DNA of 64,000 bases from Scenedesmus sp. PABB004 (Eukaryota). Below, piece by piece: positions 54,676-62,700 of this stretch (its first letter is position 1; each line of letters starts with the position of its first letter). A model generated the notes under the pieces. The model saw only the letters and a program-made list of their open reading frames with translations, had not been told where the DNA came from and made no database searches. The position numbers and the translations under genes were made by a program. Location: NCBI GenBank assembly GCA_014905635.1, contig CM026547.1, positions 1,550,001 through 1,614,000 on the forward strand. Reading direction: 5' to 3'.

Positions 54676-56620
54676 ATGGAGCGGCAGCTGCAGCGCGGCC
54701 GCGCCGCGAAGCGCGCTGTCGAGCAGGCCGCGGCAAGCAAGAAGACCTGCACATGCTGGCCGAGATGGAGGAGCAGGCGCGGGCAGGCAGAGGGGCCGCG
54801 CGCCGAGCTGGCCGCGCCGCCTGCCCACCCCCGCCGCCGCCGCCGCGGCGCAGGCGCGCGCCCCGCCCAGCCCGGCACGCGACCTCGTGCCCAAGCGCCT
54901 GAAGCCCGCGCCTGCCCTCGCGCCCATTCCTGTGCACGACGACGACGACGAGGGCCCAGCCCTGACGGCGCGGCCCGACGGCTACGCGCGGTGCGGGCGG
55001 TCGGGCGCGCGCGAGCGCCGAGTGTCGGGAGTCGGCCCCGCCGTCGCCACGGCCGCGCCCCTGCCCACGCCTCCCCGCCATCGCGCGCGCCGCAGGCTGC
55101 AGCAGCTCGACAGCGACGATGAGCCCGCGGTGCGCCCTCCGTGCCCCGCCGCGCAATGCCGCCCGCGCGCCGCGCCCGCGCGCGCCCCGCCATGCGTCGC
55201 GTGTCGCGCGGGGCGGGGGGCCAGGCGGGATGGGGCCGGGCGGGCGGCTCACCGTTCTGCACCGCGCGGCGGCGACCGCTGCCCGTTGCGACCGCCGCTG
55301 CTGCCGCCACAGGAGGTCGACGGCGACGACGAGGACGACAAGGAGGGCCAGGGCGACCAGCGGCACAACTGGCTGTTCTGCCGCCACCAGGGCTGCCGCG
55401 CCACTGCCGTGTTTGGGCCCCCCGGCCGCGCCCCGGAGGTTTGCGCGGCGCACAAGGTGCGCGCCGCGCGCAGCCCTCGCCGGCGCGCCGCGCCTGAGCG
55501 CGCGCCCGCGCGCGCGGCCTCTGCGCGACGTCGCGGGGTCGTCGGCCACCACCACGCACCCTCGCGCGCGCCGCGCTGCCCGCAGGAGACCCACATGCGG
55601 CGGCGCAGGGAGGCGTGCGGGCTGCCGGGCTGCGACAGCGACAAGCTGGCCACGCACCGCGTCGACGACGGCACCGGCGCGCCGCTCATGGGCCCTGAGC
55701 ACCTGCGCTGCCCCGACTGCGCCAAGTCGGCGGCGCAGCGCGACGAGAAGCTTGTGGTCAGCGCCTCGGCCGCCGCGCGGCTCTGCCGCCACGAGGGCTG
55801 CCGCGCCGCTGCCGCGTTTGGGCCCCCCGGCCAGCTGAAGGCGCCGCCGGCCGGGGGCGGCACGCCGCAGCCGGCGACGCCGCGCATGCCTGCGCTGCAG
55901 GAGCCAGGCCGAGGCAGCGCTGAAGCGGCGGCCAACGGGCAGGGCGGCCCCCCGCCGCGCGGCGCGGGCGGCGCCAGCAGCGCCAGCAACGAGAGCCAGA
56001 AGCGAGCTGCCTCGACTAGCGGCAAGCCGGGGCTTGTCATCTCCCTGCGGCGCCCTGCCGGCGGCGCCAGCGGCCAGCAGGCCGACCCTCACCACGCCGG
56101 CGTGCTCGAGCGGCTCGGCGGCCCCCCGGGCGGCGGCAGCGGCAGTGGCGGCATCAGCCGCGGCGACCGCGGCGACCAGCGGCCGCCCGCGCCCCGCGCC
56201 GGCGCTGGCGGCCGCGCGGGCCACGCCCGCGCGCCCGCGCTCGGCGCCGCGGCCGCGCGGGGGTCGGGGCCCGCGCCCGGCAGCGCCTGGCTCAGCCGTG
56301 GCAGCGGCGGCTCGGCCGGGCCCCCGCCGGGTGCCGGCGGCCGCGGCGCGGGCGCCAACCAGCAGCAGCGGCAGCAGATGCAGCAGGCGCAGCACCAGCA
56401 GCTGCTGTACCAGCAGCAGCTGCTGTACCAGCAGCAGCTGCTGTACCAGCAGCAGCTGCTGTACCAGCAGCAGCTGCTGTACCAGCAGCAGCTGCTGTAC
56501 CAGCAGCAGCTGCTGTACCAGCAGCAGCAGATGCAGCAGGCGCAGCACCAGCAGATGCAGCAGATGATGCAGCAGCAGCAGTGGGGCGACCTGGGGGCGT
56601 GGCAGCCGCCGCACCAATGA
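54676..56620 (+). CDS. Hypothetical protein with EsV-1-7-like Cys/His repeats and a Gln-rich tail; 5' end uncertain; apparent frameshift near 54734
   Basis: Exons bounded by splice sites; LFCRHQGCRATAVFGPPGRAPEVCAAHK, ACGLPGC...CPDC, LCRHEGCRAAAAFGPPG; (LLYQQQ)7. Confidence 0.55.
56402..56527 (+). repeat. Perfect 18-bp coding tandem repeat CTGCTGTACCAGCAGCAG x7
   Basis: Read directly; flanked on both sides by a ~30-bp direct repeat encoding QQMQQAQHQQ. Confidence 0.95.
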
Positions 56621-57093
56621 CCTGCTGCCGCGTGCGACTGCCGCCCCGCCCCGCCTGGGCTGGGGGCCCATGATTGGCGGCGGCGCGCGGCGCTGCTGGC
56701 GTGGTGGCGCAGGGCGGCGGCGGGCACGTGCTTGTGCGGCTGGGCGGCCCGCGCAAACGCGGTGTGGTCGCCCAAGGTCCGAAGTTTCTCTTGACCGAGC
56801 ATCAGGCATCGACCCTCCTCGCAAGTAACCGATCCAGCGCGAGCCGACACGCGGGCGGCGGGGCGCAGCGGCCCCTGGGTTCAGCGCGGCAGCGGCACCC
56901 GCAGCCCCGCGACCCCCTCCCACCACCGCCGCCAGCCCACAGCCGCGCGCTCTGCGCAGACCAGCAGCAGACGTGGCGCGAGCCAGCGCTGCCCGCGCGC
57001 TGCACGCCGCCCGTCGGCGCTGCCGCCGCCGATCTTGACCGCCTGCGCGCCGTCTCGACGTCACGTCGGCAGCTGACCGTGATAGCCACGCGC

Positions 57094-58993
57094 ATGCAGC
57101 CCACGCTGGCCCCACACCGCGGCGCGGGCGTGTCGCAGCAGATGCGCTACAGGCCGCTCCGCGCCTGCGGCCCGGGCGCCGCCGTGGTGCCTCGATCGCG
57201 ATTGCAACGGTCGCGCAGGGTCCTCCACACGCCTCGCGCGAGCCTGCAGGTGCGCGGCGGCGCCGGCGCGCGGGCGGCAGCAGCGCGGCGCCGCAGGCGG
57301 GCGGCATGGGCGAGGGGCATGGCCAACACCCAGCTCGGGGCCCCAGGAGCTGAGCACCGACGTGGCCATCATCGGCGGCGGCCCGGCGGCGCACACGGCC
57401 GCGACGTATCTCGCGCGCGCGGAGCTCGCGCCGGTGCTGTTTGAAGGCTGGATGGCGAACGGCATCGCGCCCGGCGGCCAGCTCACGACCACGACGTACA
57501 TCGAAAACTGTGAGCGCCGCCGGGACCGCCGCGGACGGCGCGCGTGCGCGGCGGCCAGCGGCGCTCACCACTCACCGCCCGCCGCCGCGCCGCCGCGCCG
57601 CCGCGTTCCCGCAGTCCCCGGCTTCCCGGAGCCCATCCTCGGGGCGGACCTCTGCGACCGCTTCCGGGCACAGAGCGTCGTGCACGGCACGCGCGTGTTC
57701 ACCGAGACGGTCGAGAAGCTGGAGCTCAGCGGCGGCGGCCCGTTCAAGCTCTGGACGGACAGCAAGCTCGTGACCGCGCGCGCCGTGATCATCGCGACCG
57801 GCGCGGCGGCCAAGCGGCTGCGCATCCCCGGCGCCGACGAGGGCGAGGGCGGGTTCTGGAACAGGGGCATCAGCGCGTGCGCCGTCTGCGACGGCTCCAG
57901 CCCGCTCTTCAGGCGTGGCGCCCGCCGCGGCGCGCGCGCCGCCGCCGCCGCCGTCGACGGCGCCGCCGCCGCCACGCCGCCGCGCCGCCGCCGACGGCGC
58001 TGACGGCCGCCGCTGCGGCGGCGCGCAGGAACAAGCCCGTCGGCGTCGTGGGCGGCGGCGACGCGGCGATGGAGGAGGCCTGCTTCCTCGCGCGCTACGC
58101 GAGCACCGTGTACGTCATCCACCGCTTCGACTACCTCGAGGCCAGCAAGGTCATGGCCAAGCGCGCGATGGCAAACCCCAAGATCCAGGCGCGCCGCCCG
58201 CGCCGCCGCGCGGCCGCGCGAGGGGGGGGGGGCGTGGCGGCCCGCGGCGGCGGCGGCGCCCGCGGCGAGCCGCCCGGCGAGCGCCGCGCGCGCCGCCGCC
58301 GCCGCGCGCGCGCGCAGTTCCTGTGGCAGCGCGAGGTGGTTGAGGCGTACGGCGTGGAGGGCGACGACGTGCTGGGCGGCGTGGTGCTGCGCGACCCTGC
58401 CGGCGCGCTGTCGCGGCTGCCGCTGTCGGGGCTGTTCTTCGCGATCGGGCACTCCCCCGCGACCGCCTTCCTCGGCGGGCAGCTTGAGCTGGATGAGTAC
58501 GGCTACGTCATCACAGCGCCCGACAGGTGAGCGAGCGCCCGGGCGGCTCAACACGTCGCAGCAGGGCCAGGGCACCGCACAACCGCGCGCCAAGCGACGG
58601 CGCCGCCGCCGGCGGCGCCTCTCCACCGCGCCGCTGCGCCCGCCGCCGCCACACGCGCCCGCCCCGCCTCCCCTCTCCTCACCAGCACCGCCACGAGCGT
58701 GCCGGGCGTCTTTGCCGCGGGCGACGTGCAGGACCGCAAGTGGCGCCAGGCGATCACCGCCGCGGGCTCGGGTGCGCGCGCCGGCCGCGCGGCGGCGGCA
58801 GGGCCGGGCGGGCAGGCGGCCCAAGCGCGCGCGCTGGCAGGGCTCGCAGGCACGCCCGCCGCCGCCGCCGCCGGCCGGCGCCGCAGGCTGCATGGCCGCG
58901 CTCGAGGCGGAGCGGTTCCTGGCAGAGTCGGAGAGCTCCGGCTCTGGCGCCGGCACCAACGGCAAGCAGCAGCCCGTCGCGACGGCGTCGTGA
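57094..58993 (+). CDS. NTR: Low-molecular-weight thioredoxin reductase (NTRA/B-like) with transit-peptide-like N-terminus, 7 exons
   Basis: [45 protein letters not shown]; active site [52 protein letters not shown]. Confidence 0.95.
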
Positions 58994-59738
58994 GGGGGCG
59001 GCGGCAGCACTGGGGGCCGCCGCACTGCTCAGAACGGCGGGGGCGGGGAGAGAGGGAGAACGTCGGGGGGGGGGGGGGGGGCAAGCGGGCTGCCCGCGCG
59101 CAGCGTCGACGCTGCGCGTGGGCGGGCGGGGCCGGGGCGGGCCGCCCGCGCGCAGCGTCGTTGTGCGGCGGCCGCGCGCTCTGGCGCGCGTGGGTGTCAC
59201 GAGCGAGGCCATCAAGTAGTAGCGTGTTCAGTGGCTGTGCGGGGTGCGTCGTTGGGAGTGGCTGGAGCGTGGCGCCGCCGGCGGCGCGCCGCGGCTGCCG
59301 CGCTTCTGAACCGCCCGCCGCCGCAGCGGCGCAGCTAGCTCGCCGCCCGCCACCGCCTCACACGGACCTCCCGGCAGCCTGGCAGCAGCGACCAGCGCAG
59401 CCGCCCCGCTCTCTCGTCCTCGCCCCGCGTGTGGCGCCCGTCTGCTGCCGCCAGCGCGCTGCGCACCGCCCGGCGGTGCTCGCTGAGACCAGCCTGGCCG
59501 TCGCGCCGTCGCTTTGGGTCGCGCCCCCGCCGACTTGGCTCAACTGATGGCTGCTGCTGCCGGCGGGCCGTGCTCCCGACATAGGCGCGCCAGCGCTTCG
59601 CATCGGTGCTGAGACAGCGGGAAACCGCCCGCCCGACGCCCCGGCCGAGCCAGGCCGAGCCAGGGGCCGCCGAGCGCTCGCCGCGCCGCGGCAGCAGCAG
59701 CGGCGCGCCGCCGCAGCCGCCGCGCGGCCGCCGCCGCC

Positions 59739-62700
59739 ATGGGCGTGCCCGCCTTCTACCGCTGGCTGTCCGACCGCTACCCCAAGATCGTGCGGGATGT
59801 GATCGAGGAGCAGCAGCAGTGGGTGGACGGCGAGGAGGTGCCGCTCGACACGTCCAAGCCCAACCCAAACGGCGAGGAGTTCGACAACCTCTACCTGGTG
59901 CGCCGCCCGCCCGCCCGCCCGCCCGCCCGCCGCCGCCCGCCCGCCCCGCTGCTCGCCCCCTCCGCCCTGCCGCTGCGGCGGCGCCGGCGGCGGCGCGCGC
60001 TGCCGCCGCGGGCGGTCCGGCGCCGGCGCGCCCGCGAGCTGCCGCCGGCGCGCCGCTTGCAGGACATGAACGGCATCATCCACCCCTGCTTCCACCCCGA
60101 GGACAGGGTGCGCGCGGCGCGCCCTCCCCTGCCCAGCGCCGCGCGGCGCTGCGCGCGGCCGCACGGCCGCGCACGTGGGCGCGGGCGCCGGCCGCTGCCA
60201 GCCACGCCGACCGCTGCCGGCTGCTGCCGACCGCCGCGCCGCCGCGGCGCGCGCCGCCGCGCAGCCCGCGCCGACGAGCGAGGTGGAGGTCTTCCAGAAC
60301 ATCTTTGACTACATCGACCGCCTTTTTGCCATCGTGCGCCCCCGCCGCCTGCTCTACCTGGCCATCGGTGCGCGCCAGCAGCAGCAGGCGCCACGCCGGC
60401 AGGCGGAGCGGCCGCGGCGGCGGCGGCGGCAGCAGCGGCGGCGGCGGCTGGAGCAGCGGCGGCGGACGCGGGCGCAGCAGGCGCGGGCGTGGCAGCGCCC
60501 GGCGCCGACGCGGCCGCCCGCCCGCCGCCCGCGCCCGCGCCCGCCCCGCAGACGGCACCGCGCCGCGCGCCAAGATGAACCAGCAGCGCTCGCGGCGCTT
60601 CCGCGCGGCGCAGGACCTGGAGGAGAAGGCGCGCGCGCCGCTGCACGCCGCTGCACGCCGCCGCTGCACGCCGCCGCCGCGCCGGCCGCGCGCGCCGGCC
60701 CCGCGCCGGCCCCGCGCGCCGGCCCGCGCGCCTGCCCACCGCGCCGCGCCGCGCCCGCCGGGACGCGCAGGAGGCGGAGGAGGAGCGGCTGCGCGCGGAG
60801 TTTGAGAAGCAGGGCATCCACGTGCCGGTCAAGGGGCGCAGCGAGATTTTTGACTCCAATACCATCACGCCCGGCACGCCCTTCATGCACCGCCTCTCCA
60901 TCGCGCTGCAGTATTTCGTGCACCTCCGCCTCAACGGCGACCCCGGCTGGCGCGACATCGAGGCGCGGCGCGGCTGCGCGTCGCGGGGCCGCGCCGCCGC
61001 CGCCGCCGCCGCTGCCGCCGCCGCCCCGGCCGCCGCGCTGGCGCGCGCCCTCACCCCGCTCGCTCGCGCGGCCAGGTCATCCTGAGCGACGCCAACGTGC
61101 CGGGCGAGGGCGAGCACAAGGCGATGGCGTTTGTGCGCGAGCAGCGCGGGCAGCCCGGGTGGAACCCCAACACGCGGCACGTGATGTACGGCCTTGACGC
61201 CGACCTCATCATGCTCGCCCTCGCCACGCACGAGCCACACTTCACCATCCTGCGCGAGGCGCGCCACGCGGCCGCGCGCGGGGCGCCAGCGCGCGCGGCG
61301 CAGGGCTGGCGCGGCGAGCCGGGCGCGCCCCGCCCCGCGCCGCGCCTGCGCCCGCGCCGCCGCCCTCCGACGCCCGCCCCGCCCCGCGCCGCCGCGCCGC
61401 CGCGCCGCCGCGCCGCCCCGCGCCCCGCGCCCCGCGCCCCGCGCGCCGCGCAGGTGGTGTTCCAGGGCAAGCCGCCGCCCGCGGACAACCGGCCCGACGT
61501 CGCGGCGATGCTCGCGGCCGCGGGCGCCGCGGGCGGCGGCGGCGCCGCGGAGGAGCCGCGCGTCGAGGTCGCGCGCAAGCCGTTCCAGTTCCTGAGCGTC
61601 GTGCTGCTGCGCGAGTACCTGGCGCTCGAGTTCCGCATCCCCCACCTGCCCTTCCCCTTTGACCGGGAGCGCATCCTCGACGACTTTGTCTTCCTCTGCT
61701 TCTTCGTCGGCAACGACTTCCTGCCCCACATGCCCACGCTCGAGATCCGCGAGGCGCGCGCCGCGCCGCTGACGCCGCGCCGCCGCGCCCGCGCCCGCGC
61801 CGCCGCGCGGCCCCGCGCCGCTGTGCGGATCGCGCGCCGACTCCGCGCGCCGACGCCGTGCCCCCGTGCCGCGTCGGTTGCCGCCACCACGCAGGGCGCG
61901 ATCGACCTGATGATGTCGGTGTACAAGCAGATGCTGCCCAGCCTCGGCGGCTACCTCACGCGCGGCGCGCACGTGCGCCGCGCCGCGCGCGCGCCCTGCC
62001 GCGTCGCGCGCCTCGCCCCTGGCCCCCGGCCCGCCCGCCCCGGCCGACGCGCCGCCCGCCCCGCGCGTGTGTGTGCTGCCAGGTTGACCTGGCCAAGGTG
62101 GAGCGCTTCATCCAGCGCATCGGCGCCTACGAGGACACGATCTTCCAGAAGCGCATGCGCCTCCTCGCACGGCACGCGCGCACCCGCCACACCCGCCGCC
62201 ACCGCGCGTGCCCGGGCGGGGGCCCCGCCTCGGCGCGCGCGGCCGCCCACGCGCGCCGCCGCTCGCCGCCGCCGCGCAGGCAGCGCGACCGGCTGAAGCA
62301 CCAGCAGGCCGCCGACCGCGCGCGCCGCTCCAAGGCCAAGCGCAAGTACATCGGCGCCGACGGCGCGGCGCCGAGCGCGGAGGTCGCGGACCGCCTCGCG
62401 CCCGCGGCGGCGGCGGCCTGATGGCGGTCAAAGACCTCGCCCGCCACAAGCTCGACTTCTCAGGTGCGGCGCCAGCCCTGCGCCGCGCGCCCGTGTGCGC
62501 AGCGTGACCGCCCACGCGGGGGTGCCCTGGGGCGGCGCCAGCCCCACCGCGCGGCGCGAGCCCCGCCCACCGTGCGCCGCGCGCTGCGCTCGCGCCGCAC
62601 AGGCTCCAAGGGCCCGCACGCGCCGGGCCACCTGCGCTTCACGGACGAGGGCCAGGCCGTCGCCGGCAGCATCGGCGGCGTCGGCGCGGCGCCGCCGGGG

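Follow-up and report, generated by a model that had tools for sequence, protein, structure and literature searches.

Accounts of redox regulation in plants and algae usually name two sources of input: ferredoxin, by way of FTR, and NADPH, by way of NTRA/B and NTRC. Which electron donor, then, serves a plant-type thioredoxin reductase (TR) that has lost the arginines for the 2'-phosphate of NADPH? The question is raised by a gene of the chlorophyte Scenedesmus sp. PABB004, located in a window of 64,000 nucleotides (the whole stretch of DNA analyzed here: assembly GCA_014905635.1, contig CM026547.1, positions 1,550,001 to 1,614,000 of the forward strand). Nucleotide coordinates below are those of this window. 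The gene lies as follows:

57094-58993, + strand: variant thioredoxin reductase, whole coding sequence of 392 amino acids and stop in 7 exons, from a splice model and homology to Arabidopsis NTRB

The earlier note on this locus, made from the letters alone, had reported an altered motif at 58120-58149 where NTR enzymes have HRRDxxRAS. The motif is encoded there, and both of its replacements, Arg to Phe and Arg to Glu, are conserved in a clade of green algal proteins.

To define the remodelled site, alignment columns were compared between 34 variant and 147 canonical plant and algal sequences. Near-identical cluster members were kept in; rows shorter than 300 amino acids, P0017, P0034, P0039, P0053, P0156, six bacterial rows and rows in which no motif was found by pattern were omitted. 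The window protein reads HRFDYLE (58120-58140) against the HRRxxxR of canonical NADPH-dependent TRs (EC 1.8.1.9), with Phe for the second Arg and Glu for the last. Both 2'-phosphate arginines were present in all 147 canonical sequences, whereas none of the 34 variant sequences had either. Seven columns, numbered by position in the window protein, showed zero overlap between the two sets:

column 239 (H-R-F): variant F 33, Y 1; canonical R 147
column 241 (in the motif): variant Y 32, H 2; canonical E/T/A/S
column 243 (in the motif): variant E 34; canonical R 147
column 103 (TTTT-x-VEN): variant Y 26, F 7, L 1; canonical D 133, E 13, V 1
column 113 (FPGFPE-x): variant P 34; canonical G 147
column 130: variant Y 29, C 4, H 1; canonical F 144, C 2, A 1
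column 202 (CDG-x-x): variant S 32, N 2; canonical A 146, L 1

Columns 171, 204, 210, 230 (Ala in the variant and Gly in the canonical form, just before strand beta-2), 320 and 346 were near-diagnostic. The 2'-phosphate pocket has thus been rebuilt from H-R-R-D-x-F/L-R to H-R-F-D-Y-L-E, and the new residues are almost invariant in the clade. A pocket that is both rebuilt and strongly conserved argues for a functional site rather than an abandoned one.

The motifs around this pocket are intact. The earlier note had described the CAVC active site and the flavin adenine dinucleotide (FAD) motifs as kept, and both were found (CAVC at 57878-57889; the FAD-binding GxGxxG/A Rossmann motif, IIGGGPAAH, at 57368-57394). 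The cysteines of the redox CxxC of the pyridine-nucleotide domain (C202 and C205) were invariant in 54 sequences. The pyrophosphate motif GGGxxAxE is present as GGGDAAMEE, and G221, G222, G223, D224, A226, E228 and E229 (P0007 numbering), together with I310, G311, H312 and P314, were invariant in 54 variant, canonical and bacterial sequences and in 29 variant sequences. Position x of GGGDxA varies within the clade (S 14, A 13, V 6, T 1) and the rest of that motif does not, so the earlier reading of GGGDAA for GGGDSA as part of the remodelling does not stand. The His and the first Arg of the 2'-phosphate motif are kept in 31 of the 34 variant sequences; P0016 and P0019 have Gln for the His.

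The distribution of the variant form was examined by homologue searches. The first, with the unspliced translation of exon 4, the following intron and exon 5 as query, returned 33 proteins, 21 of which carried the variant motif, 13 letter for letter and 8 as close variants. Named carriers were Tetradesmus obliquus, T. deserticola, Scenedesmus sp., Volvox reticuliferus, V. africanus, Pleodorina, Edaphochlamys, Chlorella sorokiniana, Micractinium, Parachlorella and Chlamydomonas leiostraca. Two more searches added Chlorella vulgaris, Chlamydomonas incerta, C. schloesseri, Astrephomene and Gonium. All named variant members among the matches listed belong to the Chlorophyceae or Trebouxiophyceae, the rest being metagenome or transcriptome records, and the named matches listed included no prasinophyte, ulvophycean or streptophyte alga; the search across algae proposed in the earlier note therefore finds the motif conserved in both classes. 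These results bear on two other readings, an error of assembly or sequencing in the motif, or a gene that is a decaying NTR pseudogene. Either can scarcely be entertained: the motif recurs identically in 13 independent database proteins and closely in 8 more of the 33, the frame is open across seven exons with a third-position G+C fraction (GC3) of 0.95 and all catalytic motifs intact, and the clade dates back far enough to include two algal classes. The earlier note had named an error absent from orthologs as one way in which its reading could fail, and the recurrence of the motif in orthologs refutes it.

A maximum-likelihood tree of 67 rows recovered the 24 variant rows, window protein included, as monophyletic, with a support of 100 in the Shimodaira-Hasegawa-like approximate likelihood ratio test (SH-aLRT). 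The clade lay within the Viridiplantae NTRA/B group and adjoined the canonical chlorophyte NTRs, the latter placement with a weak support of 88. In a second sampling that included P0217 the support for the variant clade was 99, and with X in place of the motif and of three further trait sites it was 100. P0217, a metagenome protein of 457 amino acids rich in Ala, Arg and Gly, is a highly divergent member of the clade, with HRFPRLEASA in the motif, TTTT-R-VEN at the inter-domain site and a shortened loop following CAVC (CAVCDGALFRGG); its branch length was 1.82 and its best identity 55%, to the window protein. The variant and the canonical HRR form occur together in seven named species (Tetradesmus obliquus, Chlorella vulgaris, Micractinium tetrahymenae, Parachlorella kessleri, Chlamydomonas schloesseri, Edaphochlamys debaryana and C. 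leiostraca), so that this is a case of duplication and not of replacement. By this phylogeny and distribution, the variant form is a conserved green-algal paralog clade of single origin that stands beside the canonical cytosolic NTR.

No variant ortholog from Chlamydomonas reinhardtii was found among the best 120 matches, in which C. incerta and C. schloesseri were present. The canonical C. reinhardtii gene is CHLRE_07g355600 (P0122), which by elimination leaves NTR2, Cre02.g098850, as a possible variant gene. In open-access literature this identifier was found in the main text of a single paper. NTR2 is selenium-free and is induced under singlet-oxygen stress (PMC7230881). For Polytomella and Prototheca, only canonical forms were seen among the matches listed. 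As a separate observation, two NTR-like proteins of euglenids also lack HRR: P0212 (Ploeotia vitrea, 388 amino acids) has VMLPELNASA at the motif place, and P0204 (Entosiphon sulcatum, 1427 amino acids) consists of two tandem copies of a long unit, with VAGKAMTASK and VPGPTMSASK at the motif places. Judged by eye, each copy of P0204 looks like an N-terminal ankyrin plus PH-like region followed by an NTR-like domain.

The relationship to reductases of known structure was examined next. The Pfam domains Pyr_redox_2 (E 1.9e-13) and Pyr_redox matched exons 2-6, and the best solved relative of the window protein was Arabidopsis NTRB (1vdc, E 4e-34 for exons 4-5). The Tetradesmus obliquus ortholog P0007 is 77-79% identical to the window protein over the kept tree columns. 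An AlphaFold2 model of P0007 had the TrxR fold with a confident core (mean predicted local distance difference test score (pLDDT) 80.1, predicted template modelling score (pTM) 0.71). Another ortholog, P0010, was scored against solved chains; we take 5j60 to be the Gloeobacter DTR, 6gna a clostridial FFTR, 5nii DvTRi and 7p9d the NTRC of Chlamydomonas. The bit scores were:

P0010 against 1vdc 457, 2whd (barley NTR2) 422, 7p9d 328, 5j60 138
P0010 against 3cty 121, 1hyu (AhpF) 114, 5nii 71, 6gna 70

The comparison with NTR, AhpF and FFTR enzymes that the earlier note had suggested thus leaves plant NTR as the nearest relative, and the derivation from NTRA that it had proposed agrees both with these scores and with the nesting of the clade in the Viridiplantae NTR tree. 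By homology, the predicted gene product is a low-molecular-mass (low-Mr) TR of the plant NTRA/B lineage. A relative of DTR/FFTR was ruled out by descent, on the bit scores of 5j60 and 6gna against that of 1vdc and on the intact pyrophosphate site. NTRC resembles the variant in being an organellar NTR of phototrophs; it differs in its Trx domain, of which the window gene has none, and in being NADPH-dependent according to the NTRC papers. The window protein stops 23 residues past ERFL, and no thioredoxin motif W/F-C-x-x-C was found in any + frame of 58994-59738. NTRC identity was therefore ruled out by the absence of a C-terminal Trx domain (WCGPC), as the earlier note had held.

With plant NTRA and NTRB (1vdc and 2whd) the variant shares fold, length, domain order, the FAD motifs, CAVC, the pyrophosphate motif, AIGH and GDV. 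It differs from them not only in having HRFDYLEAS for HRRDxFRAS. The inter-domain residue of TTTT-x-VEN is Tyr or Phe for Asp or Glu; this residue, column 103, is Asp56 in the alignment of Arabidopsis NTRB, and from the constant offset between Gln50 and Gln42 we infer that it matches Glu48 of the E. coli NTR. The Trx-docking loop reads DGxSPLF for DGAAPIF, Ala replaces Gly ahead of strand beta-2, and Pro replaces Gly in FPGFPE-x. Window protein positions 201-204, after the active site, lie in the stretch marked as a Trx-binding site ('FF' in E. coli) in PMC5627308. The clade-specific docking loop (DG-x-S-P-L-F) and the inter-domain change from Asp or Glu to Tyr or Phe suggest that the thioredoxin partner is a different one and that domain dynamics, in the balance between flavin-oxidizing and flavin-reducing (FO/FR) conformations, are altered. 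The algal variant also has a leader at its N-terminus and, at the other end, a long disordered tail.

The leader of the window protein comprises 52 amino acids (R10 P6 A6 Q5 L5 G4 V4 S4), is rich in Arg and has no acidic residues. The earlier note had described an Arg/Ser/Ala-rich leader of about 50 residues ending PRASLQ; length, Arg content and ending were confirmed, but the leader is not especially rich in Ser. Basic, acid-poor extensions of 28-97 residues ahead of the Rossmann fold were found in 21 of 29 variant rows, the other 8 beginning 4-15 residues ahead of it. Canonical algal rows differed, with 22 of 26 beginning 7-20 residues ahead of the fold and long extensions in 4. Many variant leaders end in V/L-x-A/C right ahead of the mature part, which resembles the Chlamydomonas stromal cleavage pattern, and some also fit the R-3 mitochondrial pattern. 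The window protein is probably organellar, in plastid or mitochondrion, as predicted from the leader. Of the plastid-like leader that the earlier note had proposed, the organelle-type character stands and is mostly absent from canonical algal NTRs, but plastid could not be separated from mitochondrial import. The main text of a chloroplast protein atlas preprint does not mention thioredoxin or NTR. A long N-terminal extension was also observed in the canonical HRR-type proteins P0046 (Haematococcus), P0202 (Polytomella), P0043 and P0059, and some green algae may likewise target a canonical NTR to an organelle.

In the P0007 model, residues 1-42 and most of 390-419 had pLDDT <50, with leader and tail disordered. 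The window protein's C-terminal tail contains no aromatic residues. After the disordered tail, variant proteins (P0006-P0011; 58967-58990 in the window) often have a short hydrophobic C-terminal motif, ..Q-Q/P-V-A-V/T/M-A-S; canonical chlorophyte NTRs (P0042, P0044, P0051, P0064, P0077, P0085 and P0103) often end in ..P-x-L-V-A-A, and land-plant NTRs in ..QEGKSD.

What donor would such an enzyme use? In a 1994 structure of the E. coli TrxR with NADP+, three arginines and a histidine reportedly contact the 2'-phosphate. In family-wide terms, GGGxxAxE binds the pyrophosphate and VxxxHRRDxxRA the 2'-phosphate; the published comparison also describes the HRR residues as absent in all non-NADPH TRs of its aligned set and the pyrophosphate site as poorly conserved in ferredoxin- and F420-dependent TRs (PMC5627308). 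Among enzymes without HRRxxxR, the Thermoplasma TR is NADH-dependent (PMC6262447), and DvTR3 and the Thermotoga TR prefer NADH (PMC5627308). The variant enzyme could likewise prefer NADH over NADPH, and we put the chances of this at about even. The preference is favored because invariance of the pyrophosphate site goes together with a 2'-phosphate site that has been both remodelled and conserved, and because the 2'-phosphate has lost two cationic ligands, with a carboxylate in place of the last one. The NADH-preferring TRs (Thermoplasma acidophilum, 3cty in PMC5627308; Desulfovibrio vulgaris TR3; Thermotoga maritima) likewise lack the HRR residues for the 2'-phosphate and use a pyridine nucleotide (PMC5627308, PMC6262447). 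The variant has the sequence features of this class, with HRR absent and the pyridine-nucleotide site kept. In contrast to the variant these TRs are prokaryotic, distant in sequence, as the 3cty score indicates, and of independent origin. The earlier interpretation, an organellar enzyme derived from NTRA whose NADPH 2'-phosphate site has been lost, is right in outline and partly supported.

In the mechanism that we envisage, a nuclear gene of a very G+C-rich chlorophyte would encode an organelle-targeted, homodimer-type low-Mr TR of NTRA/B descent; the low-Mr TR homodimer is a textbook case. The pyridine nucleotide would donate a hydride to FAD, from which reduction would proceed through the CAVC disulfide to a thioredoxin, as in any TrxR. 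The Glu would repel a 2'-phosphate and could reach a free 2'-OH, and the Phe and Tyr could pack on the adenine.

Several points weigh against a preference for NADH. The retained His and first Arg make residual or even dominant use of NADPH possible. Classical NADH-type Rossmann sites have an acidic residue ending strand beta-2; the variant keeps His at this end of the strand, so the acidic signature is absent. Variability in the pyridine-nucleotide domain is slightly higher for the variant clade than for the canonical set (mean column entropy 0.91 vs 0.60; in the first part of the FAD domain, 0.80 vs 0.67), in sets that differ in taxonomic breadth. Leaders are absent from the 8 variant rows noted above, which may be truncated gene models, and the physiological meaning of NADH use would depend on the compartment, plastid or mitochondrion.

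Some of these points would fit an enzyme that is still NADPH-dependent, in which the remaining His-Arg pair and the pyrophosphate site suffice and the F/Y/L/E replacements tune affinity or regulation, for example through a higher Km that makes the enzyme active at high organellar NADPH/NADP+. We regard this as rather unlikely. It draws on the widespread retention of the His-Arg pair and on the invariance of GGGDxAxEE, and also on the name 'NADPH-dependent thioredoxin reductase A' that databases give to members by homology, but these names are automatic. With two Arg lost and one Glu gained, the pocket has shifted by about three charge units, in a place where the canonical set keeps both Arg without exception. 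Moreover, a second NADPH-dependent organellar NTR would duplicate NTRC in the plastid, or the leader-bearing canonical NTR of Haematococcus (P0046) and Polytomella (P0202).

Convergence on ferredoxin or another protein donor was also considered, in the form of a DTR/FFTR-like flavin TR working in the plastid in the light. DTR and FFTR (5j60/6xtf; clostridial 6gna) likewise have the TrxR fold without an NADPH 2'-phosphate site. The 2'-phosphate arginines are lost in the variant, as in all NAD(P)H-independent TRs treated in PMC5627308, and the leader is compatible with plastid import. Enzymes of the cyanobacterial DTR/FFTR type occur in phototrophs and, as reported, in 'a few marine algae' (PMC8154056); these marine-algal proteins are a different, cyanobacterium-related family, and the bit scores give the variant no descent from it, P0010 being about threefold nearer NTRB than 5j60. 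The clade also keeps the pyrophosphate motif invariant, which is degraded in ferredoxin- and F420-dependent TRs (PMC5627308). A Trp-bearing C-terminal tail is required for ferredoxin binding and activity in the cyanobacterial enzymes (PMC8154056), whereas the variant has no Trp tail, the tail of the window protein being free of aromatic residues and that of P0007 predicted to be disordered. Because the dinucleotide site is kept, a ferredoxin donor is the less likely, and we consider it improbable.

A use of NADH would carry wider implications. Open-access text and preprints, searched without supplements and subscription journals, yielded no account of the variant clade and none of a green-algal NTRA/B of the NADH or ferredoxin type; this is consistent with the redox route being undescribed, as the earlier note had suggested. 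Calredoxin is a Ca2+-dependent chloroplast thioredoxin of green algae, among which it is conserved, and vascular plants lack it; modelling favored an NTR-type over an FTR-type reductase for it (PMC4911631). Electron exchange between NTRC and calredoxin is inefficient (PMC10602609). The clade might be a dedicated non-NADPH, NADH-driven organellar TR that feeds a lineage-specific thioredoxin, with calredoxin as the most interesting candidate partner. We offer this combination as a speculation with a small chance of being right; if it is true, the changes in the Trx-docking loop would be the imprint of the calredoxin partnership. In an alternative version the clade would be a mitochondrial reductase of chlorophytes, run on matrix NADH. 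The clade would also provide a candidate where a reductase has yet to be assigned, for example for calredoxin and for algal mitochondrial thioredoxin. If NADH is indeed the donor, it would be a third input to redox regulation, tying thioredoxin reduction to catabolic or dark metabolism. The variant occurs in model-related genera (Chlamydomonas, Volvox, Chlorella and Tetradesmus), where it is automatically annotated as 'NADPH-dependent', and its natural pair of R-to-F and R-to-E changes is a guide for engineering cofactor preference in TrxR-fold enzymes.

The gene model on which these comparisons rest was built in a sequence of about 79% G+C throughout the window, which contains spliced eukaryotic genes. 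Its exons, and the two introns with unusual borders, are:

57094-57249, + strand: exon 1, basic leader of 52 amino acids with R10 and no D/E, ending ..PRASLQ; splice model, with the LQ/E junction as in orthologs
57347-57509, + strand: exon 2, start of the FAD-binding Rossmann fold (IIGGGPAAH, 57368-57394), then TTTT-Y-IEN, with the Tyr codon at 57497-57499
57615-57912, + strand: exon 3, remainder of the first part of the FAD domain, with CAVC (57878-57889), then DGSSPLF (DGAAPIF in canonical NTRs)
57913-58028, + strand: intron 3, GC-AG (GCGTGG...GCGCAG), 116 nucleotides, 92% G+C
58029-58188, + strand: exon 4, GGGDAAMEE (58051-58077) and the remodelled 2'-phosphate motif (58120-58149; F 58126-58128, Y 58132-58134, E 58138-58140)
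58189-58317, + strand: intron 4, GC-AG (GCGCGC...GCGCAG), 129 nucleotides, 96% G+C, in frame and stop-free
58318-58526, + strand: exon 5, remainder of the pyridine-nucleotide domain, including the ten residues at 58435-58464
58686-58771, + strand: exon 6, second FAD motif at 58705-58734
58887-58993, + strand: exon 7, last helix (ERFL), low-complexity tail of 23 amino acids ending QQPVATAS, and stop; no Trx domain

Four of the six introns have GT-AG borders, and introns 3 and 4 have GC-AG. No GT donor that preserves the frame required by homology (F-R-N-K-P-V at intron 3) was found near introns 3 and 4. The join of exons 4 and 5 gave a gap-free alignment to Arabidopsis NTRB (PDB 1vdc), between chain residues 211 and 212. 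At the join of exons 1 and 2, ..SLQ is followed by ELSTD.., matching ..ALQEISAD.. of Tetradesmus. A Tetradesmus deserticola isoform of 447 amino acids (P0147) has a 27-residue insertion at the LQ/E junction, the border of exons 1 and 2 in the window gene; it resembles an intron that was retained where the intron position is conserved. Introns 2 (105 nucleotides) and 4 are stop-free and in frame, and the resulting read-through open reading frames (ORFs) mimic continuous genes. G homopolymers occur at 58222-58232 (11, in intron 4) and 59064-59082 (19, in the 3' flank), both non-coding; long homopolymers are error-prone in assemblies.

Public reads were screened in four freshwater metagenome or metatranscriptome runs, each of which held only 5-7% of the sampled words. 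Run X1 (RNA) matched 195 nucleotides at 57712-57906 with 1 mismatch, and X4 matched 151 nucleotides at 57354-57504 with 0 mismatches. Run X2 matched 183 nucleotides at 57147-57329 with 0 mismatches, unspliced over the border of exon 1 and intron 1. Run X3 was more divergent, with 8 mismatches over 256 nucleotides at 56975-57230 and 6 over 185 nucleotides at 58319-58497. The bin 58055-58131, which covers part of the motif, had a depth of 0 in 4/4 runs and no joints matched the introns; the reads have no bearing on the motif, the splice sites or the habitat.

Neither neighboring gene suggests a functional link, as expected of a nuclear genome. Downstream on the + strand, about 750 nucleotides away, an XRN-family 5'-3' exoribonuclease gene starts at 59739-59903 (XRN_N, E 8.7e-10). 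The upstream neighbor, also on the + strand, is an ORF that has a cysteine-rich EsV-1-7 motif and the C-terminal end of which is an array rich in Gln, Leu and Tyr; at 56358-56581 this array is an 18-nucleotide tandem repeat of about 9.7 copies that encodes QQQLLY.

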